From: a virus | Direction: 5' to 3' (one strand) | IMG/VR virus record: IMGVR_UViG_3300048587_000114 | Location: 3,646 to 67,645 of that record | DNA: 64,000 nt | Shown here: positions 3,587 to 61,339 of the stretch, piece by piece | How the letters are laid out: each line of letters starts with the position of its first letter | Position numbering within the stretch: the first letter of the stretch is position 1 | Translations under genes and position numbers: made by a program | The notes under the pieces: model-generated | The model's input: the letters and a program-made list of their open reading frames with translations, nothing else | The model's database searches: none | Told to the model about the DNA's origin: nothing

Positions 3587-3867
3587 TGGATAAACAAACT
3601 CATCTAACCCCCGGTGAGCGACTGCAACAGTTGGAGACGACTGTGCAGACACTTACCAAGCAGACACGTCAACAGTTGGAAACGATTCAGGAGTTGACGG
3701 AAACCTTGCGGACGATGTTCGGACTCTTTCAGATTCTCCCTGAATTACTCAATCAAAACATGCCAGCCGTACGTGCTGCGGAGGTACGTAAGTTCAAAAA
3801 CCATATGGACTACGTATCCATGCAGCATATTACGCGTTTAAATCCTGTGGAACAACAAGAAAGTTAG
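3586..3867 (+). CDS. Hypothetical coiled-coil protein
   Basis: TAATG coupling to portal stop. Confidence 0.55.
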   Translation: MDKQTHLTPGERLQQLETTVQTLTKQTRQQLETIQELTETLRTMFGLFQILPELLNQNMPAVRAAEVRKFKNHMDYVSMQHITRLNPVEQQES

Positions 3868-13100: not shown

Positions 13101-13995
13101 CGCTGCTGGAAACTTCTTCAATATCCAAAACTACGATCCGCTCAACCCGAATAACCATACCAACGACACAAACACGGTTACGCACTCTCCCGGTGAAGGG
13201 TATGCGATTCCGCAGGGTGCCCCATTCCAAGGCAGCCTAAAACCAGAAGTCAGTGTCACGCTGACTGTGGATGAAACGTCCATGTCGGCGCTTACCCGTG
13301 AAATAGAGTCGAAGGAGTTTAATGCGGAGCTAAAACTCGACGGTATTGATACCGTGATGACTGATTTTGCGGCGGCTTTTGACATGGGACGTGCATGGGA
13401 TTCAAAACAGTTTGAAGCGGATGCACAACTTAATGTTGATGCTGTAATGATTTCAGCAGCAGCGGCATTTGATATTGGGCGTGCATGGGATCAGCAAAAC
13501 TATTGGGGTGATTTTAGCCTAAACGTTGATGCTGTAATGATTGCCGCTGGTGCTGCATTTGATATTGGCCGTGCGTGGGACGGTAAGGTCTTTACTGCAT
13601 CGTTTTCTGTAGATACCAGTGGAATTACGGCTGCGGTTGAAGTTGCTCGACAAGCAGCAGCGGATATTGCCGCTGTGATGCCGCACTCACCGGCGAAGGA
13701 AGGTCCGCTGAAGGAGCCAATTACCTTCGATTATATTGGTGAAAACTTCGGTTCGGTTGCGGATGATATTCGATACAGTGCTGATCGCCTAACATCCGAT
13801 GTTGCAGGACTTCGAAATAGAAATATGGCACCGGTCGATGTTGCTCCATCTCGCACAGGCGGAATGGTAACGAAGAATTACTACTTCGCGGTTACTGGCG
13901 ATGACCTTGCACGTCTGGAACGTCAGTCCCGAGAAGGATCACTCGACGTGGAAACAACAGCCCGTGAACTTGAAATGGCGTTGGGGATGAATTAA
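10114..13995 (+). CDS. Tape measure protein
   Basis: 1293 aa, Ala/Gly rich, TP901-type core (GIKGRSAGTGLR), hydrophobic segment, PHSPAKEGPL C-terminal motif. Confidence 0.92.
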   Translation: MGHRVAELEVVVNANVGQAQRELNNLNRTFHNIIAGGALLGAGGGLVGWFKDAVTSGAQFEQTMIRVQQLATGAEVSVDALTKKAFAVDQTTIYSAQQIAEAMEQLGREGFTGEQILGGWTDAAVNFAAVIDEDLTLATNIFGQVARVFKDEGLSAARTADILSQAILRSGRPAAEFATGMQYIGSIAAQLGVPLEETATSLSYLQSLGIKGRSAGTGLRSMFTELAAGADEFGMSHGVQAFDPVTGNFVGMPKIIDQFNELLSTMSKAEGLSFLEDIFGKPASSPLYALFTGGTEAYDEHLRKMEDLGTAAAFMRTLMDTIGGSLDRFEAAASNAMRQIGVIGGNMIRPFIDLLTELLGAFANAPRIVHIAAAAFVVLTGALMGLAGAIMVFRGLGGFGLLFSGIGIMSATFLGFVAVIAGVIAAFAFFSDELGAAKDAVADFFEPVSELIDYLSRINQADNPLDFLIAQGWDGPLLTFAEGLGDVVEGLADLWYFISRGDWDRFMRRLPGELEQMWNGVKLAFSVVPEILGFTSWSDLLMGALAWTGEEIVLPMLTAVVEFGLSLVNKTVGWVGDLWSWIKGQIFGGPAATVNADGSKTVNYLPNEERNIPFGTILVEGAVALGTGFTHIAGRLWEWLQEQLMGGPTYGPPTGTRNGTGSFNTVLSEPIPLGTVILEAAFELAENVWGEAGNFAGWVVSKISEVGDIFIPVEGAKISLVNAVLELDNAQNGEDGGGLFGSIGRTIAEAIPDDLNFIREIGTGFGKAIGKAIAAISPDDMSDRVDWQNFGQNIGAFIRDGMSLIAKAPTALVFGLSEFIWSAISEITVEDLKGIGDIGGGIIAAIGGFLAGLLTGKDSSEWSFGEFQAKLGEKIYGAIGRAIRFGDGSGGKGGFTGLFDDMGNQIVAPDTLSGSIADIVMEEIGNAITRIVEKTGELIPKIWDGLEFAIPMIPFTWNGLVTGVDTAVAFVEEQITRLRNKLKELFGLQDEVGRQGAAGNFFNIQNYDPLNPNNHTNDTNTVTHSPGEGYAIPQGAPFQGSLKPEVSVTLTVDETSMSALTREIESKEFNAELKLDGIDTVMTDFAAAFDMGRAWDSKQFEADAQLNVDAVMISAAAAFDIGRAWDQQNYWGDFSLNVDAVMIAAGAAFDIGRAWDGKVFTASFSVDTSGITAAVEVARQAAADIAAVMPHSPAKEGPLKEPITFDYIGENFGSVADDIRYSADRLTSDVAGLRNRNMAPVDVAPSRTGGMVTKNYYFAVTGDDLARLERQSREGSLDVETTARELEMALGMN
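13345..13615 (+). repeat. Three 30-aa (90-bp) tandem repeats in tape measure C-terminus
   Basis: D(T/A)VMxxxxAAFD(M/I)GRAWD three times; GTTGATGCTGTAATGATT at 13435 and 13525. Confidence 0.8.
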
Positions 13996-35283: not shown

Positions 35284-36228
35284 CTACCCTCCGAGCGCGG
35301 CGTCCATGTGTGCAGCCGCCTGTGTTTTGAGTTCATCGACAACCGCGCCGTAGCGAACGGTCATGCGGATAGACGTGTGCCCAAGCAACTCCATCAGGGT
35401 CTTTTCGCTCACGCCCTTGGAGCGTAGAAGCGTTCCGAACGCGTGCCGGAGTTGGTGTAGTCCAATCGGGTCAATACCCGCGCTTGTTAGCGCGTCTTGC
35501 AGCCCCATGTAGACCGCATGCGGGTCCACAGGCTTGCCAGCTTGCCCTTGAAAGATGTACTCCGTCGCGGCTGGCCGAACTCGATTGTGCTCAAACGCGG
35601 CGTCGTATAGCTGCCCAAGCGTATCGGCGGCGAGACGTGGTAGCGGTAGTACCCGGCGAGAAGCCGCCGTCTTAGGCTCTGATACCACAAGTCCGTTTCC
35701 GGTGATTCGCTGCACAGCGCGGCTAACTGTAAGAGTTCCTGCACCGAAGTCAATGTCACCCCATTGGAGCGCACAAACTTCTCCACGTCGAAGTCCGAGG
35801 GAAAGCATGAGGATGTAGATTGGTTCATACTTGGTACCCTCTACCGCGTTCAGCAACGCCTGTGCATCGGTTGCCGTCGTCGCCTTGATCGTGGTGTTCG
35901 GAACACGCGGCATGCTGACACGCTTCGCCACGTTAACCGGAAGTTCGCCGTACTCAACCGCTTGATCCAAGGCTTGCCGGAGAATAATCTGCGTTAAGCG
36001 GATGGTTCCCGCCGACAATCCCTTGTGATGCTGAAGCACCATAATCTGCCCGACGTCGTTCGGGCGAAGCTCACCGAGTTTCTTGGTTCCGATCACCGGA
36101 ATGATGTAGCTGCGAATGTGCTGACGGTAGTTTGCAGCCGTTCGCGGACGGAGACTGTGCGCGTGCAAGTCCATCCATTCGTTCATGTACTGAGCCACCG
36201 TCATGTTCTCAGTCATCAGTGCGTCCAA
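35284..36228 (-). CDS. int: Tyrosine integrase/recombinase
   Basis: GLRRGE, EPKT, HQLRH, LLGH and catalytic Y (TVRY). Confidence 0.92.
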   Translation of the reverse strand: MDALMTENMTVAQYMNEWMDLHAHSLRPRTAANYRQHIRSYIIPVIGTKKLGELRPNDVGQIMVLQHHKGLSAGTIRLTQIILRQALDQAVEYGELPVNVAKRVSMPRVPNTTIKATTATDAQALLNAVEGTKYEPIYILMLSLGLRRGEVCALQWGDIDFGAGTLTVSRAVQRITGNGLVVSEPKTAASRRVLPLPRLAADTLGQLYDAAFEHNRVRPAATEYIFQGQAGKPVDPHAVYMGLQDALTSAGIDPIGLHQLRHAFGTLLRSKGVSEKTLMELLGHTSIRMTVRYGAVVDELKTQAAAHMDAALGG

Positions 36229-51178: not shown

Positions 51179-51601
51179 ATGCCACGACCGATGTATACCA
51201 TGCCCTCTCCGTCTGAACGGATGACGGAGGGGTATGGAAGTCAGGTGCTCAGGAAAATCGAGCGGGATATGTACCTGCTGTGGGAGGAACGGGGAATGGA
51301 GCGGATGCCGAGAGTCCTCCGGCTCCACCCCGATCTGTGGCAGGCAATCCGGATGGAGTTCACCAACCGGATTACCGAGACGTTTCATTATGTCGGAACC
51401 TATGATTCGTACCGGCGTGTGGAAACGCCGAACGTGCGGACGCTGTACGGCGACTTCTGGTTCATTGAAGATGGTGGACTGCCTATCGGGGAGTACGTCT
51501 TTGACCATTATGATGCGTGGAAGCGTCGGCATGAGCAGGAAGCGGAACTCTACGCCCGGATTGCGTGGCTAGAGCGGCGTCTGAGTGGGAGGGAACCATG
51601 A
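51179..51601 (+). CDS. Hypothetical protein
   Basis: In operon, RBS AAGGAG. Confidence 0.5.
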   Translation: MPRPMYTMPSPSERMTEGYGSQVLRKIERDMYLLWEERGMERMPRVLRLHPDLWQAIRMEFTNRITETFHYVGTYDSYRRVETPNVRTLYGDFWFIEDGGLPIGEYVFDHYDAWKRRHEQEAELYARIAWLERRLSGREP

Positions 51602-51780
51602 CCAGACCGACAGTAAAGGAAGCTCTGATTGCGTTTTTCGCGGCGGTACCGGTTAGTCTGATGATTGCCATAGACGTCGCGGCGTTCTTCTGGTGGTCCC
51701 TGATCCTCTTGGTCGTGCTTGGTGTCATCCTGTGCGGATTCTGGAAGATCGGGGAACTTGTCGAAAGGTACCTTGACTGA
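51598..51780 (+). CDS. Small membrane protein
   Basis: Two hydrophobic segments; ATGA coupling. Confidence 0.55.
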   Translation: MTRPTVKEALIAFFAAVPVSLMIAIDVAAFFWWSLILLVVLGVILCGFWKIGELVERYLD

Positions 51781-52040
51781 TGCGAGACTTCAGCTATCGC
51801 CGCCCGTGGGAGAACCAGACGGCGCAATGCCCCGCGTGTGGAAGTACCGCTGTGTTTACTGACCGGGATCAGCCCGAAGTGGACACCACGGAAACGAACA
51901 AGCTCTATCCGATTGGGGGAGGGCCGACGAGATATATCGGAACGCTCATCTTCTGGAAACCGTGCATGAGTTGCCGGGACCGCTTGGAATGGTGTGTATC
52001 AGCGGAAGCCCTTGACACGCAGCCGAGACGTGGTGTATAG
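51780..52040 (+). CDS. Zn-ribbon hypothetical protein
   Basis: CPACGS...CMSC. Confidence 0.5.
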   Translation: MRDFSYRRPWENQTAQCPACGSTAVFTDRDQPEVDTTETNKLYPIGGGPTRYIGTLIFWKPCMSCRDRLEWCVSAEALDTQPRRGV

Positions 52041-52041
52041 T
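52012..52041 (+). promoter_or_regulatory. Promoter of tRNA array
   Basis: TTGACA-N18-TATAGT. Confidence 0.65.
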
Positions 52042-52153
52042 ACCTACATCGCCGCAATGGAGCGGTTGCAATGCCCGACGACGCACTACGTTATCGGGCA
52101 TTAGCGTCTCCACCGGCCCTTAACAATCAAACAGGCACATCCTGTGTGCATAC

Positions 52154-52227
52154 TTGGGTGTCGTTCAATGGTAGGACACGTCGCTGTTAACGATGGTATT
52201 GGGGTTCGAATCCCTGCACCCGAGCCA
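52154..52227 (+). tRNA. tRNA-Asn(GTT)
   Basis: Cloverleaf, CGTCG-CTGTTAA-CGATG, CCA end. Confidence 0.9.
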
Positions 52228-52229
52228 AT

Positions 52230-52304
52230 GGGAAGGTAGCGTAATGGAAACGCGGCTCTCTCCAAAAGAGTCAGATGGGGGTTCGAATCCTCTCCGTCCC
52301 GCCA
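52230..52304 (+). tRNA. tRNA-Trp(CCA)
   Basis: GCTCT-CTCCAAA-AGAGT, CCA end. Confidence 0.88.
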
Positions 52305-52305
52305 A

Positions 52306-52379
52306 TGCTTTGTCGGCTAACGGTAGGCCGCTTCGCTCTGGACGAAGTTGTTGTGGTTCGAATCCACACGAAGCAACCA
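52306..52379 (+). tRNA. tRNA-Gln(CTG)
   Basis: CTTCG-CTCTGGA-CGAAG, CCA end. Confidence 0.9.
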
Positions 52380-52387
52380 GAAACCCC

Positions 52388-52416
52388 TTGACAACGAATC
52401 AAGGGTATGCTAAAGT
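52388..52416 (+). promoter_or_regulatory. Internal tRNA-array promoter
   Basis: TTGACA-N17-TAAAGT with extended -10 TG. Confidence 0.6.
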
Positions 52417-52561
52417 AGATACAGTGGAAATGAGGAACGAGACGAACACAGAAATCGAGCCGAAAGGATAACGATGATGTAACCGCTCAACTCACTTCTT
52501 TGAGGGCTGTGCCGTGCAGGTCGCGGTGCATAAGGAACCGGTAAGCACCGGGAACCCAAAT

Positions 52562-52636
52562 GTCGGGGTAGCTCAGTGGTAGAGCACTTGTCTCATAAGC
52601 AAGAACGCATGGGTTCGAATCCCTTCCCCGCCACCA
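52562..52636 (+). tRNA. tRNA-Met(CAT) (Ile2 not excluded)
   Basis: CTTGT-CTCATAA-GCAAG, CCA end. Confidence 0.85.
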
Positions 52637-52752
52637 GAGGTTCGCAGCGTTCCGTGATAAACTGCGTGTGGACGTGCGATTCACATAAAATAAAGAGCAC
52701 AGACCCCGCAGACACGATGCGGGACGGGGTTGCAAACCTGTCGAAAAATCGG

Positions 52753-52823
52753 GCCGGGTTGATGTAGGTGGACTGGCATATCCCCCTGAAGGGGAAAGCG
52801 TGGGTTCGACTCCCACACCGGAG
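52753..52823 (+). pseudogene. Degenerate tRNA-like element
   Basis: Good T arm GTGGG-TTCGACT-CCCAC and TCCCC-CTGAA-GGGGA arm, poor acceptor stem. Confidence 0.45.
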
Positions 52824-52824
52824 T

Positions 52825-52923
52825 TTGCTCGTAGGACAATTGGCAGTCTAACCGTGTAAATCGGGGGCGTACGACCTTGGAGGCACGGACATGTTGCAGG
52901 TTCGAACCCTGCCGAGCAAGCCA
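52825..52923 (+). ncRNA. tRNA-like RNA with 27-nt anticodon loop
   Basis: Acceptor TTGCTCG/CGAGCAA, D arm GGAC/GTCT, CCGTG/CACGG stem, T arm GCAGG-TTCGAAC-CCTGC, G+CCA. Confidence 0.75.
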
Positions 52924-53025
52924 CCCGCGATCTGACCAATTGCGGGGAGAGTCGCGGTTCGGCGGGAGTCGTAACCCAATGAACCCCCTGACCGGGCAGG
53001 GATGGAGTAACGATCCACCCGGTAT

Positions 53026-53098
53026 TTCGCAGTAGCTCAGGGGTTAGAGCACATCTCTGATACAGATGGTGCCGGTGGTTCGATTCCACCCTGCGGAA
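53026..53098 (+). tRNA. tRNA-Ile(GAT)
   Basis: CATCT-CTGATAC-AGATG; no encoded CCA. Confidence 0.85.
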
Positions 53099-53227
53099 CT
53101 GAGGCCGGTGAAGCCTGCGATGCGAAGCGTCGAGAGTACGACGATAGTACCGCGAAGATACCTCGGGTCGGCACCCTATGATACGTGTCGTGGGCCGCTG
53201 GCAATAGCCTGTGTATGAGGCCCGAAT

Positions 53228-53300
53228 GCTGGCATACGCTAATCGGCAGGCGAACGCTCTTTCAAAGCGTTGTGTGCGAGTTCGACTCTCGCTGTCAGTA
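53228..53300 (+). tRNA. tRNA-Glu(TTC)
   Basis: ACGCT-CTTTCAA-AGCGT. Confidence 0.85.
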
Positions 53301-53450
53301 CCGGGTAGATGTACTACCCTTTACAAATCACCGTGTCTCTGGCCGCACTCCCTGTGGTACGACCTGTTCGGTGCAAGCCCGAACGAAAAGCCCCGGACTA
53401 ACCAACCGGGCACGCCCCGGATACATCCCAAATCCGCTCCGGGGCACCTT

Positions 53451-53523
53451 GCCGGGATCGTCTAGCGGTCTAGGACGTATGGTTCTCAGCCATGCAGCCG
53501 GGGTTCGAATCCCCGTCTCGGTA
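53451..53523 (+). tRNA. tRNA-Glu(CTC)
   Basis: TATGG-TTCTCAG-CCATG. Confidence 0.85.
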
Positions 53524-53645
53524 CGAGCCTTGGGCTTCGGCGTAAAACTGCCCACGACCTGAGTATAACGTCGTTAAACTCGCTCCGGAGGATACGTCCT
53601 CCGTCTGGACCTGTAGCTCAATCGGGAGAGCGTCGGTACTGGTAT

Positions 53646-53719
53646 GGGAGATTTGCATAATGGAAGTGCTCTTGGCTTACATCCAAGAAGCGGTGGTTCG
53701 ATTCCATCATCTCCTACCA
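53646..53719 (+). tRNA. tRNA-Val(TAC), nested inside the split tRNA
   Basis: CTTGG-CTTACAT-CCAAG, CCA end. Confidence 0.88.
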
Positions 53720-53738
53720 GTTTCAAGGAGAGTAAATA

Positions 53739-54161
53739 GTGCCAATGCCATACAAACCGAGAGCGGAATGTAAACGCTGCGGGGCTCTGGTAAAGTTTAC
53801 AAAAACGGTTTTCTGTAGTCAGGAATGCCAAATTACACATAAGCGAGAAACCTATCTCGCTCGGTGGAAGTCTGGACAGGAAAAAGGCTACGGAAAGTAC
53901 GGGCAACTGTCTAACACGATTCGGGAGTATATCTTGAAGCGTGCCGGGTATCAATGCGAGGAATGTGGGTGGCACAAAAAGCATCCCGTTACTGGTAGCG
54001 TACCGGTGGAGGTACACCATAAAGACGGTGACTATGCAAATACGCATGAGGGCAATCTGATTGTTCTGTGCCCAAACTGCCATTCACTTACTCCTAACCA
54101 CGGAGTTTATAATAAAGGGAAGGGAAAACCGTATATTCGCCTTGCAAAAGCAGTACCGTAG
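53739..54161 (+). CDS. HNH endonuclease nested inside the split tRNA
   Basis: CEECGW...EVHHKDG...NLIVLCPNCHSLT; RBS AAGGAG. Confidence 0.9.
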   Translation: MPMPYKPRAECKRCGALVKFTKTVFCSQECQITHKRETYLARWKSGQEKGYGKYGQLSNTIREYILKRAGYQCEECGWHKKHPVTGSVPVEVHHKDGDYANTHEGNLIVLCPNCHSLTPNHGVYNKGKGKPYIRLAKAVP

Positions 54162-54248
54162 GTTCTAGGTTCGAGTCCTAGTAGGTCCACCAGTCGAAGA
54201 AGCAGGGGACATAGGGTACCCGTCTTAATAATCCTGCGGAGACTGCAT

Positions 54249-54334
54249 GGGGATGTTTTGGTGTTCGCCCGGTAGATGCGAGGGTACAACCTTGATGATC
54301 GCCGGAAACGTGGGTTCGACTCCCACCATCTCCA
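54249..54334 (+). ncRNA. Miniature tmRNA-like RNA (tRNA-like domain only)
   Basis: GGGGATG/CATCTCC with G3:U70, stemless D loop TTTTGGTGTTCGC, T arm GTGGG-TTCGACT-CCCAC, closed by a short hairpin. Confidence 0.7.
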
Positions 54335-54492
54335 CCGAGACGTTGAGCAGTCGTCTCAAAAAACAGGCTCACGGTTGATTGCACCGGGCTGTTCTCCTGC
54401 ACGGAGACGGCAAGCAATCCTAACGCTTCGGGTCCGCTGGACGGGCGGCTGTGCAGAGAGACGGTAGAAATCCCTCACCGAAGCGTTCACTT

Positions 54493-54574
54493 GGGTTGGT
54501 ATGCAAGCGGCTCAAAGCAGCGTGTCTGTAAAACACGTCCTACTGGTTCACAGGTTCGAATCCTGTCCAGCCCA
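54493..54574 (+). tRNA. tRNA-Tyr(GTA)
   Basis: CGTGT-CTGTAAA-ACACG, long variable arm. Confidence 0.88.
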
Positions 54575-54583
54575 CCGGAGGCA

Positions 54584-54841
54584 ATGATGCGATTTGCTGA
54601 ACAGAACGTAGAAATCGAATCGCTCTACATTTCGCTGGCAATTCTGACTATCGGCATCTATGCAGCCGTGTCATCAGACGATCCAGAGGAAATGAAGCAA
54701 CAACTGAAGAATGCCGCCGTGCATGCACAAGCGGCCTTCCCTGAGCCGTACCACACGGTACTCATGGAGAAGATCGGAGAGCATGCGTTTCGGGATGACG
54801 TCGAGCAGACGCGTCCGCAATATCACACTGAGGGCCGATAG
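54584..54841 (+). CDS. Hypothetical protein
   Basis: RBS GGAGG; stop codon lies inside tRNA-Ala. Confidence 0.55.
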   Translation: MMRFAEQNVEIESLYISLAILTIGIYAAVSSDDPEEMKQQLKNAAVHAQAAFPEPYHTVLMEKIGEHAFRDDVEQTRPQYHTEGR

Positions 54842-54903
54842 CTTAACGGGAAAGCTACTACCTTGCACGTAGTCAGATTGGGGTTCGAATCCCCATTGGT
54901 CCA
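54832..54903 (+). tRNA. tRNA-Ala(TGC)
   Basis: ACTAC-CTTGCAC-GTAGT, G3:U70. Confidence 0.9.
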
Positions 54904-54927
54904 CCGAGTAGGTGAAAGGAGAACACG

Positions 54928-55206
54928 TTGCCTATTCTTTCGTCAGTGAAACAAAAGACCAAGGTTTCGACCAGTTCAACGATTGAAACGACACTGGAAG
55001 CGAAACTCGCAGAAGTCGCGGAACTGACAGAGCAACTTGAAGCAACCGCTGTGCAAGAGATTGACGCATCGAATCAGTCGATTGCTGATCTTGAATCGCG
55101 GATTGCAGCAATTCAACAACGGAAGATGATTGCCAAGGGACGTATCGAACGAGCGGCACAAACCAGAGCGTTGTTCCAACCCGTTCCTCCGGTACAAACC
55201 AAGTAA
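54928..55206 (+). CDS. Coiled-coil hypothetical protein
   Basis: RBS AAGGAG, TTG start. Confidence 0.55.
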   Translation: MPILSSVKQKTKVSTSSTIETTLEAKLAEVAELTEQLEATAVQEIDASNQSIADLESRIAAIQQRKMIAKGRIERAAQTRALFQPVPPVQTK

Positions 55207-55240
55207 TGATCTTTTGATGGTGATGCAAGGAAGTGATACC

Positions 55241-55621
55241 GTGCAGCTAGTATGCAACCAGTGTGAGAAATCATACAAAGCAGAAAAGAGAACGTCGAAA
55301 TACTGTTCCCGAGCTTGCAGCAACACGGCACGCCGAGGGATGACGTATTCGAAAGACTCTCACGGTAACAGTTCCAGACAACGCCTTAATTTGCTGAAAA
55401 ACACGTTCAACTTTACCGAGTGTATGGTAGAGGGTTGTGGCTATACAAAAACGTTTGACATTCACCGATATATACCCGGTAAATTGGGTGGAGAATATGT
55501 CATCGGCAATATGTATGCTATTTGCCCAAACTGCCATGCAGAAGTATCTCGGGGAATTGTAACGTTTGAAAAAGTAGACGATAAAACACTTCGGATCAGT
55601 GGGGTAACGGTAGCCCAATAG
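55241..55621 (+). CDS. HNH endonuclease
   Basis: CNQC...YCSRAC; CMVEGC...DIHR...ICPNCHAE; stop lies inside tRNA-Ser; start uncertain. Confidence 0.8.
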   Translation: MQLVCNQCEKSYKAEKRTSKYCSRACSNTARRGMTYSKDSHGNSSRQRLNLLKNTFNFTECMVEGCGYTKTFDIHRYIPGKLGGEYVIGNMYAICPNCHAEVSRGIVTFEKVDDKTLRISGVTVAQ

Positions 55622-55675
55622 TCTTGAAAACTATCTAACCGAAAGGTTATGTGAGTTCAAATCTCACCTGATCCT
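55593..55675 (+). tRNA. tRNA-Ser(TGA)
   Basis: ATAGT-CTTGAAA-ACTAT, long variable arm. Confidence 0.85.
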
Positions 55676-55679
55676 CCGT

Positions 55680-55765
55680 GGACGATTGGGATAAGGGTAT
55701 TCCAGAGGGTTGCTATCCCTCCCAACCGCAAGGTTGTGTGCGTTCGAATCGCACATCGTCCTCCA
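55680..55765 (+). tRNA. tRNA-Ser(GCT)
   Basis: GAGGG-TTGCTAT-CCCTC, long variable arm, CCA end. Confidence 0.88.
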
Positions 55766-55788
55766 TCTGAGAAAAGGTTTATATACGC

Positions 55789-56121
55789 ATGCCAAAAGTT
55801 ATAAAGTATGCCGACTACATTCCTTTGTGGAAGGCGGGACTTGTAAGCGGAAATCGCGGTATAATACATATAGACGTCTCTGCGAATGTGCGCCGTTACT
55901 TGCTTGAAAGGTGCGGAAATACGTGTGAAGAATGCGGTTGGGGCGCGATAAATCCGTTTACCGGAAAAGTAACACTTGAAGTTCATCACATTGATGGAGA
56001 CTATCAGAACAGCAGAGAAGAAAACTTAAAAGTGCTCTGCCCAAACTGTCACTCTTTAACCTATAACTATAGAGCAAGAAATAAGTCCGGGTTGGCACAA
56101 AGCCTACCCAAGAAAAGGTAA
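55789..56121 (+). CDS. HNH endonuclease
   Basis: CEECGW...LEVHHIDG...NLKVLCPNCHSLT. Confidence 0.9.
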   Translation: MPKVIKYADYIPLWKAGLVSGNRGIIHIDVSANVRRYLLERCGNTCEECGWGAINPFTGKVTLEVHHIDGDYQNSREENLKVLCPNCHSLTYNYRARNKSGLAQSLPKKR

Positions 56122-56125
56122 TCAT

Positions 56126-56200
56126 CGGGGTTTAGCGTAAGGGTTAGCGCACGTCGTTTGGGACGATGTGGACAGGTTTCGAGTACCTGATCCCCGACCA
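56126..56200 (+). tRNA. tRNA-Pro(TGG)
   Basis: CGTCG-TTTGGGA-CGATG, CCA end. Confidence 0.88.
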
Positions 56201-56217
56201 CGGGAAGGAGAAACCGT

Positions 56218-56307
56218 ATGAACTGGAACCTGATTGCAGCGATTTTCTTGGGCGTATTCTTTGCGCTCCTTGCATGGGCACTATTGACCGATCAAATCGT
56301 TCTCTAA
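56218..56307 (+). CDS. 29-aa membrane peptide
   Basis: RBS AAGGAG; MNWNLIAAIFLGVFFALLAWALLTDQIVL. Confidence 0.55.
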   Translation: MNWNLIAAIFLGVFFALLAWALLTDQIVL

Positions 56308-56316
56308 GGAGGGAAT

Positions 56317-57093
56317 GTGGTTCAGATTAACCGTGAGGGGCCAAAAGTCTTTTTGGTCGGGTATACACAGCCGGTCATGCCAGAAATCCGCCGCTATCTA
56401 GATCATCGCGGTGTGAAATGGATTACGGAGAATCCGAAGGATGATCCACTGGCGATTGTTGAAATGGCAGGCCGTGTGTGCTACCACAGTTGGCGGAATC
56501 CGCAAGGGCGGACACGTCAGGAATATATTGCCGAGCAAATTATCGGGCATGAGCATGGAAGCGTGCTCGAACACGTCTGGTTCAATATGCTGGTGGCAGA
56601 CCTTCCCCGAAGTTCGCAGCTTGAATTGGTGCGACATGGGGAAGGAACGGGATTTAGTTTCGAAAGTCAACGGTTTACGGACGCTCATCTACGATTCGTG
56701 GTTCCACCACGGCTACGGGAGGACGACGATGCCATTGCACTCTTTACAAGCGCGGCGAATCTCGCACAAGACTACTACACAGCGTTGCAGGCACTGTCGG
56801 GGTCCGACTCCGATGAAGGAACGCTTGCACGGAAACGCATCAAGGAAGCAGCACGGGCTGTGCTCCCGAATGCCGCTGGAAGCGACGGTATGGTAAGCAT
56901 GAATGGCCGTGCCGCACGGCACATCATTAATCTGCGATCCAACGAACATGCGGACCTCTCAATCAGAGAGTTTGCATGGGAAGTGTATCAGGCGATTTCA
57001 GATGTTGCTCCGGCACTCTTTGCCGACGCAACCGTGAACTATGGAGCGAGTGACGGGATTCCGTCTGTCTCGTTCGAACATCCGAAGGTCTAG
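56317..57093 (+). CDS. thyX: Flavin-dependent thymidylate synthase
   Basis: AGRVCY, HGSVLEH, ELVRH...SQR, EAARAVLPN. Confidence 0.9.
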   Translation: MVQINREGPKVFLVGYTQPVMPEIRRYLDHRGVKWITENPKDDPLAIVEMAGRVCYHSWRNPQGRTRQEYIAEQIIGHEHGSVLEHVWFNMLVADLPRSSQLELVRHGEGTGFSFESQRFTDAHLRFVVPPRLREDDDAIALFTSAANLAQDYYTALQALSGSDSDEGTLARKRIKEAARAVLPNAAGSDGMVSMNGRAARHIINLRSNEHADLSIREFAWEVYQAISDVAPALFADATVNYGASDGIPSVSFEHPKV

Positions 57094-57160
57094 GAGAATG
57101 CACGGGCCGTCAGACTACTGCACATCGTAAGAACAGGCCCGGAGACGCGTCCGGGCACAT

Positions 57161-57234
57161 TCAGGGATCGGTTAACGGTAGGCCGATGGTCTTTGGAACC
57201 ATCTGTATAGGTTCGAATCCTATTCCCTGATCCA
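57161..57234 (+). tRNA. tRNA-Gln(TTG)
   Basis: ATGGT-CTTTGGA-ACCAT, CCA end. Confidence 0.9.
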
Positions 57235-57235
57235 T

Positions 57236-57324
57236 GCCCTTCTGGTGGAACTGGCAGACACGACGGCCTCAAACGCCGGAGCCGAGGGATCGGCGTACAG
57301 GTTCAAGTCCTGTGAGGGGTACCA
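57236..57324 (+). tRNA. tRNA-Leu(CAA)
   Basis: CGGC-CTCAAAC-GCCG, long variable arm, CCA end. Confidence 0.85.
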
Positions 57325-57325
57325 C

Positions 57326-57354
57326 TTGACAAGTAGTCGGAAATCGGGTATACT
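57326..57354 (+). promoter_or_regulatory. Internal tRNA-array promoter
   Basis: TTGACA-N17-TATACT. Confidence 0.8.
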
Positions 57355-57375
57355 GATTTCAGTGAAGGAGACGAG

Positions 57376-57615
57376 ATGCCGAAGATCGCATTTATCAAAT
57401 GGGACACAGGCGACTGGATTCAGATGTACGTCAACGGGGAGAAAGTCTATGAAGGACATTCGATCCCAAGAGACGAACTTCTGAGACTGGCCGGAGTAGA
57501 GTTCGACTCCTACGAAATCCTCGGAGAGAGCGATGAAGCGGAAATGATCGGTTGGTCGGGAAAGTCCCTTGACGAAGCACTTGTCATTGTGAACGACGTA
57601 CTAGTGTGTTACTAG
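57376..57615 (+). CDS. Hypothetical protein
   Basis: RBS AAGGAG; GDWIQMYVNGEKVYEGHS. Confidence 0.6.
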   Translation: MPKIAFIKWDTGDWIQMYVNGEKVYEGHSIPRDELLRLAGVEFDSYEILGESDEAEMIGWSGKSLDEALVIVNDVLVCY

Positions 57616-57622
57616 TACACAT

Positions 57623-57707
57623 GCGTGGGTGGTGGAACTGGTATACACGCTAGTCTTAGAAACTAGTGCCCGAGAGGGCGTGATGGGTTCGAATCCCTCC
57701 CTGCGTA
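57623..57707 (+). tRNA. tRNA-Leu(TAG)
   Basis: CTAGT-CTTAGAA-ACTAG, long variable arm. Confidence 0.88.
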
Positions 57708-57833
57708 CCGTAGCCAAGCGCCTCTCCCGAGAGAGCCGACCATGAATCGTTAGTCTCGGTGAAGCAATTCGGGCTGGAAAGACGGATGCATACGGTGAGC
57801 CAGCAGTTATGTCCGGACTCAATCGGGCACATA

Positions 57834-57901
57834 GGATATGTGTAGCTCAATTGGCAGAGCACCGTCTAAAACCGGAGATTCGGTTTAAGTCCGACACTTC
57901 C
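57834..57901 (+). pseudogene. Degenerate tRNA
   Basis: Canonical D arm TAGCTCAATTGGCAGAGC, shortened anticodon arm, T loop TTTAAGT, bulged acceptor stem. Confidence 0.55.
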
Positions 57902-57906
57902 CTCAT

Positions 57907-57978
57907 GCTGATGTAGCTCAGTGGTAGAGCGTCTGATTGAAGTCCAGATGGTCGGCGGTTCGAATCCGCCTGTCAGCA
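57907..57978 (+). tRNA. tRNA-Phe(GAA)
   Basis: TCTGA-TTGAAGT-CCAGA. Confidence 0.85.
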
Positions 57979-58103
57979 CCGGTCGAATAATCCGATAGAC
58001 CAAAAGAACCGGAGCGTTACTCACACGCTTGCAAGCCAGATATGGTGCGACGGTACGGGTTGAGATTTCTGATTTCGGCCAAATGACGTACGCATTTGGC
58101 AAC

Positions 58104-58179
58104 ATCCCTGTGGTATAATGGACAGTGCAGCACGTTTCTACCGTGCAAGGTGCGGGTTCGAATCCTGCCGGGGATACCA
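58104..58179 (+). tRNA. tRNA-Arg(TCT)
   Basis: GCACG-TTTCTAC-CGTGC, CCA end. Confidence 0.88.
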
Positions 58180-58180
58180 C

Positions 58181-58254
58181 GGTCGCATAGCTCAATTTGG
58201 GAGAGCACCGGCTTGTCACGCCGGAGGTTGCGGGTTCGATCCACGTCGTGACTG
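58181..58254 (+). tRNA. tRNA-Asp(GTC)
   Basis: CCGGC-TTGTCAC-GCCGG. Confidence 0.82.
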
Positions 58255-58287
58255 CTAACAACTAACCTATCAAAACGGAGGTTAAGC

Positions 58288-58716
58288 ATGGGTAATGTGA
58301 AAAAGGCGGAAACACTCGGTATGCCGCATGGCACGGCTACAAATCGCTTACGTAAACAGTTGTTATTTAAGTATGTCTGTCTTGCAGGAGACAATATATG
58401 TTATAAGTGTAAGAATATAATAGAACTGATTGACGATTTATCTATTGAACACATTAAACCGTGGGAGGGTAGGTCCGCAGAACTATTTTGGGATTTGAGT
58501 AATATAGCGTTTAGTCATATCTCTTGTAATAGACCGCACGTTAACGGAGCGGTAAGACGCCGGATAAGTTTAGATGGTGATGTTTTTCGTTGTTGTTCAT
58601 GTAAACAGACGAAAGAACGGTCGAATTTTGGTATAAGCAGTAGTCGATGGAATAATGTGCAGTCAGAATGTAAAGATTGTCGTAATAAACGCCCGAGAGT
58701 GCGTCAGTCGTCGTGA
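58288..58716 (+). CDS. HNH-like endonuclease
   Basis: CYKC...SIEHIKPW...NIAFSHISCN; C-terminal CCSC...CKDC. Confidence 0.75.
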   Translation: MGNVKKAETLGMPHGTATNRLRKQLLFKYVCLAGDNICYKCKNIIELIDDLSIEHIKPWEGRSAELFWDLSNIAFSHISCNRPHVNGAVRRRISLDGDVFRCCSCKQTKERSNFGISSSRWNNVQSECKDCRNKRPRVRQSS

Positions 58717-58735
58717 TCGCCAGTAGCTCGTTTTT

Positions 58736-58810
58736 GCCGGTGTAGTGTAAAGGAAAACACGCAACGCTTCGAACGTTGTAGTGCGGGTTCGAGTCCTGCC
58801 AGCGGCACCA
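58736..58810 (+). tRNA. tRNA-Arg(TCG)
   Basis: CAACG-CTTCGAA-CGTTG, CCA end. Confidence 0.88.
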
Positions 58811-58825
58811 CGGAAAGGGTACGGT

Positions 58826-59086
58826 ATGCAAGTCGAAGTCATGTACCGGGAGCCTGATACGTACCCGGCAATTCACTGGAACGGCCATAACAGTGCTGAT
58901 GTGCAAGCGTGGCTGGATCGGAATCTTCGTTTGTCGGGGGACTACGATAATCAATATTGTGTGCGGAATAATGTTCTCTATCTTGGAATGTATACCCTTC
59001 CGGTGAATACGTGGTTGGTGGCTGACGGGAGCGTGCAGGACTTTACCGAAAGGGAATTTGCAAGTATATTTCTTGTCGTTTCCTAA
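58826..59086 (+). CDS. Hypothetical protein
   Basis: AIHWNGHN...NTWLV...EFASIF. Confidence 0.55.
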   Translation: MQVEVMYREPDTYPAIHWNGHNSADVQAWLDRNLRLSGDYDNQYCVRNNVLYLGMYTLPVNTWLVADGSVQDFTEREFASIFLVVS

Positions 59087-59093
59087 GTTCTAT

Positions 59094-59166
59094 GGTGTTT
59101 ATGGCCGAGCGGTCTAGGCGCATGCCTGTGGAGCATGTTACACGGGTTCGAACCCCGTTAGGCACC
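59094..59166 (+). tRNA. tRNA-His(GTG)
   Basis: CATGC-CTGTGGA-GCATG, G-1:C73. Confidence 0.88.
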
Positions 59167-59172
59167 CTGAGT

Positions 59173-59246
59173 GAGCGGTTGGCCGAGTGGTTAGGCGCGT
59201 CTCTGCAACAGACAGGACAGCGGTTCGAATCCGCTACCGCTCTCCA
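59173..59246 (+). tRNA. tRNA-Cys(GCA)
   Basis: GTCT-CTGCAAC-AGAC, U73, CCA end. Confidence 0.88.
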
Positions 59247-59247
59247 C

Positions 59248-59319
59248 GCCTTTGTAACTCAATGGTAGAGTAAGCGTCTTTTAAACGCGAAGTTGTGGGT
59301 TCGAATCCCACCGGGGGCA
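59248..59319 (+). tRNA. tRNA-Lys(TTT)
   Basis: GCGT-CTTTTAA-ACGC. Confidence 0.85.
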
Positions 59320-59321
59320 CT

Positions 59322-59498
59322 ATGGTACACGTTGTCGGTGTATTGGCGTTGCTTGTCGGGATGATTGTTCTCTGTCGGCACAGCCTGCATGACACACAAC
59401 TCCTGATGGACTTGGAGGGTATTGCCATTTTTGTCCTGATGGTGTACTGTGTACTTCGACTGTATGGTGTGAAACTCGCTTTTGTAGCTCAATGGTAG
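59322..59498 (+). CDS. Small membrane protein
   Basis: Two hydrophobic segments; weak RBS; stop lies inside tRNA-Lys(CTT). Confidence 0.35.
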   Translation: MVHVVGVLALLVGMIVLCRHSLHDTQLLMDLEGIAIFVLMVYCVLRLYGVKLAFVAQW

Positions 59499-59549
59499 AG
59501 CAAGGCTCTCTTAAAGCCGGGGTTGGTGGTTCGAATCCACTCAGGAGCA
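59478..59549 (+). tRNA. tRNA-Lys(CTT)
   Basis: GGCT-CTCTTAA-AGCC. Confidence 0.85.
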
Positions 59550-59669
59550 CGGCTCAATGCGGTGAACAGGTAAAGCTTCCGTGTGGTTGTCCCGACTTCC
59601 ACCCCCAAAGGCCACGGGGACAATAGTTTGCGGCACGTACCGGCGCGTGTGGGAAAACACCGGAACCCT

Positions 59670-59743
59670 GTCAGTGTGACCGAGTGGTTAGGTGCTTGCC
59701 TTCCAAGCAATGAACGCGGGTTCGATTCCTGTCACTGACTCCA
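59670..59743 (+). tRNA. tRNA-Gly(TCC)
   Basis: TTGC-CTTCCAA-GCAA, U73, CCA end. Confidence 0.88.
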
Positions 59744-59760
59744 TGTGCTACGGAGAACCA

Positions 59761-60069
59761 ATGAACGGTTTAGACTACACAAAATACATTACACTATGGA
59801 AAGCTGGACATGTAGATGGTAGCCGTGGTAAAGTAGGAGTGTCTAAACACGTTCGCCGTTATTTGTTTGAGAAATACGATAATAAGTGTGCTGTTTGCGG
59901 CTGGTGTGAAACACATCCGATAACTGGTGAAGTTCCACTGGAAGTACATCACATAAGCGGACACGCGAATACGGAGAGCAATCTTATTTTGCTGTGTCCC
60001 AATTGTCACAGTCTTACGGGTACCTATAGAGGTAGAAATAAGGGACACGGAAGGACAACCCGAAAATAA
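59761..60069 (+). CDS. HNH endonuclease
   Basis: CAVCGW...PLEVHHISG...NLILLCPNCHSLT. Confidence 0.9.
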   Translation: MNGLDYTKYITLWKAGHVDGSRGKVGVSKHVRRYLFEKYDNKCAVCGWCETHPITGEVPLEVHHISGHANTESNLILLCPNCHSLTGTYRGRNKGHGRTTRK

Positions 60070-60070
60070 T

Positions 60071-60149
60071 GCATCTGTAGCTCACGTTGGTCCCGAGCAG
60101 CGATCTTGTAAATCGCAGGACGCAGGTTCGATTCCTGTCAGATGCTCCA
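60071..60149 (+). tRNA. tRNA-Thr(TGT)
   Basis: GCGAT-CTTGTAA-ATCGC, CCA end. Confidence 0.88.
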
Positions 60150-60150
60150 C

Positions 60151-60184
60151 TAGGTTGCGGGTTCGACTCCTGTTCGTAGCTCCA
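60151..60184 (+). pseudogene. Orphan tRNA 3' half
   Basis: AGGTT-GCGGG-TTCGACT-CCTGT-TCGTAGC-T-CCA. Confidence 0.75.
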
Positions 60185-60284
60185 AGGAAAGGACTGCACA
60201 CGCTAGTGCCCTACCCGTTATCCGTGGGTGTGGGAAACTTCAGTCGTTTCAAGTAGCGCATCAATTGGCGGCGAACGGATAAAG

Positions 60285-60313
60285 AAAAGAGCGGCCCTTC
60301 GGGGCCGCTTTTT
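60285..60313. terminator. Bidirectional intrinsic terminator
   Basis: AAAAG-AGCGGCCC-TTCG-GGGCCGCT-TTTT between convergent units. Confidence 0.85.
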
Positions 60314-60777
60314 CATGTCTGGAAAATGCTGAAGTAAATTAAAAAGAGGAACGCTCCGTAGAGCATCCACGGTTGATCCCACCGGACAACCTCCCGGCGC
60401 GACATTGATACTGAAGATGCTCGGTTTCGTCGCTTGCTTCCTCGTTTTGTCTTTCCCAAAACGCGAAGTCGTTCCTTCCGGTAGTAGGAGACTTTCGCCT
60501 GAACGGTTCGGCCCGGAATGGTCCGGGCACCTTTGGCAAGGTTGCACGTTCGGCACGACGTGACAAGGTTACGTGGGTCATCGGTTCCTCCTTTCGCCCG
60601 TGGCTTAACGTGGTCCAGTTGCAGCATGTACCGAGAGTCACAATACACGCACTTGTTATTGTCGCGTTTATAGATGCTCCGGCGCTGTTCGACACTGATC
60701 CAGTTACGGTCGTACGAGTTCGAACGTTTGTGTTTGAGTGGTAGCGTCATATGTGTACCCACCTGAAAGGGCATCAC
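60313..60777 (-). CDS. HNH endonuclease
   Basis: CVYC...LDHVKPRAKGG...NLVTSCRTCNLAKG. Confidence 0.9.
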   Translation of the reverse strand: MMPFQVGTHMTLPLKHKRSNSYDRNWISVEQRRSIYKRDNNKCVYCDSRYMLQLDHVKPRAKGGTDDPRNLVTSCRTCNLAKGARTIPGRTVQAKVSYYRKERLRVLGKTKRGSKRRNRASSVSMSRREVVRWDQPWMLYGAFLFLIYFSIFQT

Positions 60778-61339
60778 ATAGACGGAGTATGCCGTCTACC
60801 GCGTCGTTCTCGGACTGTCCGGTAAGATCAATGACGAAGTGAGCGGTGATGTTGAACTGTTCGGTTTCCGATGCGTGTGTTGTGGATCGCTTATCCGCAT
60901 TCCCACTCGCATCCTCAATATTCCGAATCAGTCGAACGATCCAGAAGCCTTGCTCACGGAGGGCGTCTGCTTCATTCACGAAGCGACAGTCATCCACAAC
61001 CACAGGACCGCTTGTCATGGAAAACGTTTGTTTCCAGCGGTTAATCCAGTGGTCGGGTTCCCCCATAAACTCTCGCCAAAAATCTGTTCCGTACCATTGC
61101 AAGAGCGGTCCAAACGTCGTCTTTTTGAACTGTTCGATGGTAGCCTTGTTCAGAGAGGACGGATTCGGGCTGTGTCCCCGAAGCGTGTGTTGCTTGACCA
61201 CATAATCAAGCATGTCAGCACAGTCCTGTTTGACCGCATCGGCAAAGGCAAGTCGCTGATGCCCGCGATGCTGAACAAGGGCGTTGGCAATCGTTGTCTT
61301 TCCAACGCCATACGGCCCGATAAAAGCGAAGTGACGCAC
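60704..61339 (-). CDS. Deoxynucleoside monophosphate kinase
   Basis: GPYGVGKT, FADAVK, LQWYGTD..R, VDDCRFVNE, HASE. Confidence 0.88.
   Translation of the reverse strand: MRHFAFIGPYGVGKTTIANALVQHRGHQRLAFADAVKQDCADMLDYVVKQHTLRGHSPNPSSLNKATIEQFKKTTFGPLLQWYGTDFWREFMGEPDHWINRWKQTFSMTSGPVVVDDCRFVNEADALREQGFWIVRLIRNIEDASGNADKRSTTHASETEQFNITAHFVIDLTGQSENDAVDGILRLCDALSGGYTYDATTQTQTFELVRP

Follow-up and report, generated by a model that had tools for sequence, protein, structure and literature searches.

An HNH endonuclease gene and an intact tRNA-Thr between the proposed remains of a Thr-type tRNA gene: a probable eroded homing cassette in a phage tRNA array

The IMG/VR virus record IMGVR_UViG_3300048587_000114 is a complete 67.6-kb record with terminal repeats, and nearly the whole of it was analysed here (64,000 nt, positions 3,646 to 67,645; hereafter the window, numbered from its first base). 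The window carries a transfer RNA (tRNA) array at 52154-60149 with 26 tRNAs called by ARAGORN, and the spacing is 1-5 nt for seven adjacent tRNA pairs. At the 3' end of this array, an HNH endonuclease gene and an intact tRNA-Thr(UGU) lie between the motif GCTACGG and an orphan tRNA 3' half (59747-60184, Table 1). This arrangement, called nest 2 here, is a candidate homing cassette and is the subject of this report. All four features had been named in a preliminary description of the locus, and the sequence and the ARAGORN calls place them at the same coordinates.

The CCA of the upstream tRNA-Gly(UCC) occupies 59741-59743 and is followed by tgt, and GCTACGG begins directly after these three nucleotides. 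This spacing had been described as normal for the array, and it falls within the range given above. The overlap of GCTACGG with the ribosome-binding site of the HNH gene is also real: its last two bases are the GG of GGAG (59752-59755), which stands 5 nt ahead of the HNH start codon (59761, not 59762). The inner tRNA-Thr(UGU) has an 11-nt D loop and begins 1 nt past the HNH stop codon. The orphan abuts its CCA and consists of ct, a variable loop AGGTT (60152-60156), a T stem GCGGG (60157-60161), a T loop TTCGACT, the second T-stem strand CCTGT (60169-60173), an acceptor strand TCGTAGC (60174-60180), U73 (60181) and its own CCA (60182-60184). The T stem has three Watson-Crick and two G-U pairs and is identical to that of the called tRNA-Gly. 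GCTACGG and TCGTAGC form six Watson-Crick pairs and one G-U pair, and the outer element made up of these two parts bears the marks of a tRNA, namely a 7-bp acceptor stem, a five-pair T arm with a TTCRANY loop, a discriminator base and CCA. The orphan has neither a D arm nor an anticodon arm and was called by neither ARAGORN (normal and intron modes) nor Rfam. The outer element is a relic, not a tRNA gene. A D-arm-like AACC/GGTT at 59756-59772 was rejected, having no U8 and no GG in its loop; this stretch codes for the conserved HNH N-terminus shared with a paralog. The orphan was also seen in near-identical short contigs from four public runs.

Table 1. Features of nest 2, of the tRNA array around it and of related loci
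Feature	Location	Strand	Basis or remark
tRNA-Gly(UCC), intact upstream neighbour	59670-59743	+	ARAGORN; Rfam tRNA 57.3 bits
GCTACGG, proposed outer 5' acceptor strand (positions 1-7)	59747-59753	+	Pairing with 60174-60180
HNH gene of nest 2, 102 amino acids, putative homing endonuclease	59761-60069	+	Open reading frame; Pfam, PHROG; one of five HNH reading frames in the array
Inner intact tRNA-Thr(UGU), 79 nt, proposed cassette passenger	60071-60149	+	ARAGORN; Rfam tRNA 58.6 bits
Outer 3' remnant (orphan)	60150-60184	+	Sequence; abuts the tRNA-Thr CCA
GC-rich hairpin	60290-60309		Strand not set; terminator-like, called on - strand; TTTT after it on + strand
Sixth HNH gene, resident-looking	60313-60777	-	G+C 52.5%
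Nest 1	53607-54192	+	Outer tRNA 5' part 53607-53645, 3' part 54154-54192
HNH gene of nest 1, in array	53739-54161	+	Open reading frame; Pfam
HNH gene in array	55130-55621	+	Open reading frame; Pfam
HNH gene in array	55789-56121	+	Open reading frame; Pfam
HNH gene in array	58288-58716	+	Open reading frame; Pfam
ROOL RNA or tmRNA site in another phage locus	L073 5865-6493
ROOL RNA or tmRNA site in another phage locus	L116 779-1186
ROOL RNA or tmRNA site in another phage locus	L126 3325-3697
ROOL RNA or tmRNA site in another phage locus	L040 749-1155

The nest-2 HNH protein matches Pfam HNH (PF01844) with 26.5 bits against a cut-off of 21.4, and it matches PHROG HNH families. Its translation shows the His/Asn/His core with CxxC pairs as CAVC...EVHH...N...CPNCH, which is conserved in the family alignment A1, and it is without the N-terminal Cys-rich segment present in many relatives. 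The preliminary description was right in calling it a paralog of the HNH in the nest at 53.6 kb (49% identity, E = 7e-27; nest 1 here), and it is also a paralog of the HNH at 55789-56121 (56%, E = 9e-35). The G+C content of the gene is 42.7%, versus 52.5 ± 3.7% in the window, where 3.5% of 309-nt segments are at or below 45%; the five plus-strand HNH genes of the array range from 40 to 47.5%. All five end at or just before a tRNA or tRNA remnant; one of them overlaps tRNA-Ser(UGA) at 55593, and three are separated from tRNAs for Pro, Arg and Thr by 4, 19 and 1 nt. By composition and occurrence the nest-2 HNH appears to be a foreign, sporadic gene, its absence elsewhere resting on one relative.

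Nest 2 was searched for a group I intron. Rfam gave no match with E up to 1 in 51500-61000 or with E up to 10 in 59650-60330, and blastn found no similarity to the Rfam-verified introns of two phage loci (L037 and L057; L numbers denote phage loci fetched for comparison), while the positive controls L115, L061 and L073 did match. Since there is no ribozyme in the window nest, the outer tRNA would not be restorable by splicing.

The chance of finding GCTACGG was estimated by counting 7-mer complements with at most one G-U pair over all positions of the window. With 18 such complements among the 64,000 positions, 0.11 matches are expected over the whole interval from tRNA-Gly to the orphan (407 positions), and 0.003 over the 11 positions that separate tRNA-Gly from the HNH start. 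A control with the 26 real tRNAs yielded 5 spurious matches upstream altogether. The earlier caution that a 7-nt match could be chance therefore holds for a match anywhere in the interval, which would be unremarkable, but a match at this exact slot is rare. These numbers bear on both sides of an alternative in which the HNH gene entered between tRNA-Gly and a tRNA-Thr that was already resident, the orphan is what is left of a separate tRNA behind tRNA-Thr after loss of its 5' two-thirds, and GCTACGG arose by coincidence, owing its sequence in part to the ribosome-binding site: the interval-wide expectation and the spurious control matches favour it, and the expectation at the specific slot speaks against it. 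A further difficulty for this alternative is that a deletion endpoint would need to fall exactly at the tRNA-Thr CCA.

Because the anticodon of the outer tRNA is lost, acceptor ends were used as an empirical signature of identity in a set of 895 distinct tRNAs, drawn from the window and from the phage loci fetched for comparison. G1-C72 and C2-G71 are threonine identity pairs in E. coli. As had been described, both pairs and U73 are common to the outer element and the inner tRNA-Thr. G1C2..G71C72 with U73 occurs in 107 of the 895 tRNAs (Thr 54, Gly 47, Cys 4, Arg 2), and when T3-A70 is added (GCT..AGC with U73), 12 remain, of which 10 are Thr and 2 Cys. The start GCTAC was found in 2 of 1047 phage tRNAs, both of them tRNA-Thr(UGU), which again argues against a coincidental GCTACGG; one of the two, that of L049, has exactly GCTACGG paired with CCGTAGC. 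By these comparisons the end signature of the outer element is Thr-type, a class that in a tRNA without its anticodon does not prove identity.

The surroundings of the HNH family were then compared over 145 loci, 65 found with the nest-2 protein and 80 with 16 aligned family members as query; three contigs are common to both sets and several loci are near-duplicates. A flanking tRNA is present in 102 of the 145. tRNA-Thr(UGU) flanks the HNH gene in 45 loci and makes up 30% of the flanking tRNAs, versus 6.7% of all tRNAs there, and in several loci it is the sole tRNA within 12 kb and abuts the HNH gene. At 58 loci a same-strand tRNA starts between -40 and +15 nt from the HNH stop codon (tRNA-Thr(UGU) in 17 of them), and the window's five plus-strand HNH genes fit this rule too, if the outer 3' half of nest 1 is counted. 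Many of the tRNA-Thr(UGU) near HNH genes in L037-L040, L049, L050, L051, L056 and L076 are unusual, being 83-85 nt long with a long variable arm.

ARAGORN in intron mode together with an orphan T-arm search revealed three kinds of tRNA genes split around HNH genes. In the first kind, the HNH gene lies in a group I intron, within tRNA-Thr(UGU) in L115 and L116 and within tRNA-Leu(UAA) in L061 and L073; the non-coding ends of these introns are conserved and homologous to the verified introns of L037 and L057. For L115 by itself, Rfam Intron_gpI gave a non-significant 14 bits (E = 0.64), and the intron call rests on this homology. The second kind has no detectable ribozyme and no passenger (L105, L160, L099). 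The third kind, also without a ribozyme, carries a complete passenger tRNA and comprises the two nests of the window and L068/L071, L131/L147/L151, L134, L135, L159, L130 and L126, nine groups without homology to the verified introns. Clean insertions in the anticodon loop are found in L068, L131 and nest 1. In nest 1, the outer tRNA is split after the anticodon loop by tRNA-Val(UAC) at 53646-53719 and an HNH gene of 140 amino acids, whose stop codon lies inside the outer 3' half. ARAGORN in intron mode reports it as tRNA-Thr(ggt) interrupted by 508 nt at position 40, its end signature is GGA..TCC with A73, which is not Thr-type, and an 8-bp complement (CGGTACTG/CAGTACCG) spans the junctions. 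In L135, L134 and L130 the outer anticodon-stem 3' strand is lost, and the variable loop and T arm follow 8-27 nt after the passenger; this layout matches that at 60150 exactly.

The position of the outer 5' half was consistent among these loci. At all 10 other loci in which no more than 30 nt separate an HNH-abutting tRNA from an orphan T arm behind it (L068, L071, L126, L130, L131, L134, L135, L147, L151 and L159, in 7 groups), a matching 5' acceptor strand and D arm were found upstream of the HNH gene, often 1-3 nt after the preceding tRNA. This result also speaks against an unrelated, separately truncated orphan. More broadly, 17 of 29 orphan T arms behind HNH genes have an upstream complement, versus about 7 expected from shuffled acceptor strands.

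In the two third-kind groups with several loci, the nests are far more alike than the DNA around them. The L068 and L071 nests have 98.2% identity over the span bounded by the two end bases of the outer tRNA, with flanks of 69-88% (these are related phages). L131, L147 and L151 share only the nest (92-95%) in loci of about 5.3 kb, apart from two weak 64-68% stretches about 1.3 kb from the nest that are shared by L131 and L151 alone, and the shared block starts at the first base of the outer tRNA-Ala. Paired differences occur in the distal outer tRNA, in the acceptor stem in L151 and in the T stem in L147, as expected if the cassette entered different tRNA-Ala alleles and converted them only near the break. 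These comparisons show that HNH-tRNA nests are mobile in other phages, with boundaries at the outer tRNA ends. No second copy of the nest-2 cassette was found, and the likeness of element over flank was seen for the homologous nests only; for nest 2, transfer is supported by the foreign G+C content of its HNH gene.

The passenger has the identity of the split tRNA in five of the nine groups (Ala/Ala, Gly/Gly, Ser/Ser, Thr/Thr in L130, and nest 2), outer identity being set by the anticodon or by the end signature. Supporting signatures are GCG..CGC with U73 (Gly in 32 of 33) and GGA..TCC with G73 (Ser in 45 of 49). L068 is ambiguous, with a Thr-type acceptor (36 of 39) and a loop UUU, as are L134 and L126, and nest 1 is not cognate, with tRNA-Val in a non-Val tRNA. 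By our own estimate, a passenger drawn at random would agree in roughly one case out of ten to twenty. The proposal that a mobile unit of HNH and replacement tRNA lands in the cognate tRNA gene can thus be kept in part: the HNH is foreign and sporadic, HNH-tRNA units sit in split tRNAs of unrelated phages and five of nine groups are cognate. Within the window, cognate landing agrees with the Thr-type ends of nest 2 but not with nest 1.

Taken together, the orphan and GCTACGG are best read as both ends of one former tRNA gene, and 59747-60184 is probably an eroded homing cassette with a replacement tRNA, inserted in a Thr-type tRNA gene. The earlier interpretation is largely right in kind, although at nest 2 its support comes from analogy and from a remnant of 7 nt. 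In the ancestral state, a tRNA gene with a Thr-type acceptor would have followed tRNA-Gly(UCC) at normal array spacing. A cassette of HNH and intact tRNA-Thr(UGU) would then have taken over its interior, leaving the old gene dead and the passenger to supply threonine tRNA. The HNH enzyme would cut insertion-free tRNA genes, probably in or near the anticodon arm, and on repair of the break from a cassette-bearing genome, both the HNH gene and the tRNA linked to it would be copied in. This tRNA is presumably cut-resistant and would preserve function as self-splicing does for an intron. Passengers of cognate nests differ from the outer tRNA in the anticodon stem, as in L151 (outer CCTGC/GCAGG, inner GATGC/GCATC), and so may escape cutting; the odd shapes of tRNA-Thr, such as the long variable arm or the 11-nt D loop of the window's inner tRNA, might lie behind such resistance. 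Both tRNA halves would afterwards give homology for ordinary homing into other alleles. The useless outer halves would decay by deletion, furthest on the 5' side in nest 2, where positions 8-43 may have been lost after insertion, or the insertion itself may have been imprecise. This reading predicts an enzyme that cuts the outer tRNA-gene type and spares the inner.

The closest comparison comes from a single relative. In 2.9 million viral contigs, only one phage relative was found (L002/L100), 74% identical on a 498-amino-acid open reading frame in a protein-anchored search and 43% on one of 211 amino acids. Its array ends with tRNA-Gly(UCC), 1 base, tRNA-Thr(UGU) and a terminator hairpin, with no HNH gene and no orphan. 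Since L002 has no HNH gene between Gly and Thr, the HNH gene is an insertion in the window, and the slot after tRNA-Gly is a threonine-tRNA slot in the lineage. The hairpin that closes the window's array lies about 105 nt 3' of the orphan, and its L002 counterpart directly follows tRNA-Thr. GenBank phages gave no megablast match to window 59000-61000, and the nest-1 HNH alone as query found no relatives.

Several observations weigh against an eroded cassette in a Thr-type gene, and the main one, against an outer resident and an inner incomer, is the start of the L002 tRNA-Thr. A relative lacking the HNH gene had been expected to show a tRNA-Thr starting GCTACG; the L002 acceptor is GCATCCT, which resembles the inner GCATCTG (5 of 7 bases) and not the outer strand. 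Overall the two tRNAs are 77% identical, the top value among all same-anticodon pairs, and since the L002 tRNA-Thr is of the inner type, the inner tRNA could be the resident gene. The GCATC start occurs in 4 of 69 tRNA-Thr(UGU), those of the window, L002, L035 and L036, of which the last two adjoin the closest HNH homologs. The conflict would be reconciled on the assumption that the GCATC-type tRNA-Thr travels with the HNH lineage and that L002 kept the tRNA and lost the HNH gene. Orthology with the L002 tRNAs was rejected as a guide to the resident Thr gene, as same-anticodon pairs are 61-77% identical, near the level between different tRNAs. Typing of 3' halves by nearest neighbours, which gave Thr for the orphan in 19 of the top 60, was dropped because two of three controls were mistyped.

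The remnant itself adds to these points. Two of the seven bases of GCTACGG also serve in the ribosome-binding site, so the match counts for slightly less. The 5' half is reduced to 7 nt with no D arm, unlike every other nest, a state that calls for two deletions or for an insertion that was imprecise. Other decayed elements occur in the array as well, tRNA-like ones at 52757-52819 and 57840-57897 (Rfam tRNA 25.9 and 27 bits, cut-off 29) and lone T-arm motifs at 52899-52909 and 57500-57510, so a truncated tRNA is not unusual there. For nest 2 we infer cleavage and its specificity, homing, a resistant inner tRNA, the erosion and the sequence in which these events took place.

The intact tRNA that had been predicted for relatives, GCTACG...CGTAGCTCCA, was found in no collection of viral, metagenome or genome contigs. 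The acceptor pattern gave no intact tRNA in viral contigs, where it could not reach tRNAs with long variable arms, two matches in metagenome contigs, neither a tRNA, and seven in genome contigs, none a tRNA; the orphan's exact 25-mer was not found in viral or metagenome contigs. In the public run X7, a 151-nt contig matches 59620-59746 and then differs over 24 letters, so the X7 relative does not continue with GCTACGG, as read from a single contig of depth 2. A second X7 contig covers 60083-60232 (tRNA-Thr, orphan and 48 nt beyond), and its five changes cluster in 60151-60157. Both proposed cassette junctions are therefore variable among close relatives. The public-run contigs are short, none lying over 59810-60031 and none bridging the cassette; no public run contained half of the sampled window words, and there was no RNA run among them.

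The L002 order, with Gly followed directly by an inner-type Thr, the further decayed elements in the array and the GG that belongs to GGAG all suit an insertion beside a separately truncated tRNA. L002 nevertheless has no tRNA or remnant behind its tRNA-Thr, and with the slot-specific expectation, the tRNA starts and the ten comparable loci, this account is unlikely.

The eroded cassette was also weighed against a functional tRNA-like end, in which a minihelix closed with 59747-59753 is selected as a signal for processing, stability or CCA addition, or as half of a two-piece tRNA. Both the minimum-energy and the centroid folds of 59744-60184 close with a helix of 59747-59754 and 60173-60180, but the fold is no better than those of shuffled sequences (z = -0.82; 22 of 100 shuffles as good). 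The X7 variant keeps the T loop, 3' T stem, acceptor strand and CCA and confines its five changes to 60151-60157, among which G60157A converts a G-U pair to A-U; this variant is one contig of depth 2. Between L068 and L071, the four differences in the outer halves all lie in loops or at position 26, which would also suit such selection. The element has no D or anticodon arm and so could not decode, it is not in L002, and bacteria are not known to possess a pathway for joining tRNA halves of this sort. A selected tRNA-like end is very unlikely.

A local duplication would make the orphan a partial tandem copy of the tRNA-Thr or tRNA-Gly 3' half, arising by slippage or by repair after a cut. The T arms are indeed near-identical (Gly GCGGGTTCGATTCCTGT, Thr GCAGGTTCGATTCCTGT, orphan GCGGGTTCGACTCCTGT), all three end in T and CCA, and in the available part of PMC2330249 the T4 SegB enzyme offers the precedent of a tRNA-cluster endonuclease able to cut at a T-arm motif. 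The acceptor strand, however, differs from Thr at 4 of 7 and from Gly at 5 of 7 positions, whereas the T arm differs at 1-2 of 17. An acceptor far more divergent than the T arm is a poor fit to one recent copy, and the complement at 59747-59753 would be left unexplained, which makes this origin highly improbable.

Orphan tRNA 3' ends with CCA are typical of attachment sites, and the orphan could be a phage copy of a host tRNA 3' end (an attP core) or a scar that an integrating element left behind. The window encodes a tyrosine integrase (PF00589, 87.5 bits, 35341-35877, minus strand), and a temperate lifestyle is probable for the phage; PMC9897764, as far as its available part goes, deals with fragments of tRNAs in prokaryotes. 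The integrase gene is nevertheless 24 kb distant. The 21-mer 60160-60180 was not found in bacterial genomes of 185,579 species, although an unsampled host is possible, no bacterial tRNA with such an acceptor stem was found among the seven genome pattern matches noted above, and the orphan is not a repeat of the adjacent tRNA 3' end. An attachment-site origin is extremely improbable.

HNH genes in tRNA arrays, and SegB, are already known. According to the available parts of PMC5966550 and PMC8421152, no protein genes are more common within or next to the tRNA arrays of mycobacteria, mycobacteriophages and cyanobacteria than HNH genes, which are thought to spread the arrays and to diversify tRNA sets; what is described there is a neighbourhood, not an insertion within a tRNA gene together with a spare tRNA. 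T4 SegB is a free-standing GIY-YIG homing endonuclease of the T4 tRNA cluster that cuts tRNA genes of related SegB-less phages and so drives inheritance of its own gene and of neighbouring tRNA genes (PMC2330249). Its gene, like that of nest 2, lies between phage tRNA genes, and it is the nearest tested precedent for the proposed mechanism. It differs from nest 2 in being GIY-YIG and not HNH, in recognising a T-arm motif and in being intergenic, with no split outer tRNA or fused passenger described in the available part of that report. In 'fractured genes', a homing endonuclease gene lies between gene halves that are rescued by split inteins (available part of PMC2677866). These resemble nest 2 in that a gene is broken by a free-standing endonuclease gene and its function is saved by a non-intron device; they differ in using protein trans-splicing of the gene's own halves, where nest 2 would use a replacement gene and let the broken gene decay. 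A literature search that did not include Pope et al. 2014 or supplements found no description of an endonuclease and a tRNA nested in a tRNA gene.

Endonuclease-bearing group I introns share with nest 2 an insertion at the tRNA anticodon-loop region and tRNA halves as homology flanks, and some carry HNH relatives inside; unlike them, the window nest has no ribozyme, and a second intact tRNA rides along. Synthetic 'cleave and rescue' drives are engineered, use Cas9 and target essential animal genes, and phage tRNAs are not essential. The shared logic is a nuclease that destroys the resident copy and a linked copy that cannot be cut, a resistance that for the nest-2 passenger would have to be supposed.

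It is possible, and is proposed tentatively, that phage tRNA arrays hold homing elements in general, in which a tRNA-cutting HNH enzyme and a cut-resistant spare tRNA, standing in for a self-splicing intron, form a natural 'cleave and rescue' system that breaks the resident tRNA gene at the anticodon arm and restores its function in a single step, uses the short and conserved tRNA halves as portable homology and hops between unrelated phages; the window would then hold two such elements at different stages of erosion. Homing endonucleases are known to persist within self-splicing introns, within inteins or in intergenic positions, and a cassette inside its target gene with a replacement copy would be a third way to spare the host. 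If true, this would explain the frequency of HNH genes in phage tRNA arrays, the litter of orphan tRNA halves there, and the arrival of single tRNA genes, chiefly tRNA-Thr(UGU), in phages without other tRNAs. Such elements would be a main engine of phage tRNA gene gain, turnover and decay. In annotation, such tRNA halves would be neither attachment sites nor assembly errors.

Other RNA elements were observed in these arrays. An 89-nt tRNA-like element of the window at 54249-54337, without an ARAGORN call, matches Rfam transfer-messenger RNA (tmRNA) with 46.4 bits, just below the cut-off of 47; by eye it has an acceptor GGGGATG/CATCTCC with G3-U70 and A73, which are alanine-type ends, and a similar short tmRNA-like match occurs in L061 (63.9 bits). 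L002 has two tRNAs with a UUA anticodon at 11852-11925 and 13484-13555, which ARAGORN labels 'tRNA-Stop', and one is present in L046/L047; these are possible TAA suppressors or a possible sign of stop-codon recoding. ROOL RNA (350.7 bits) and full-length tmRNA genes lie near the tRNA arrays of other phages with HNH genes of this family.

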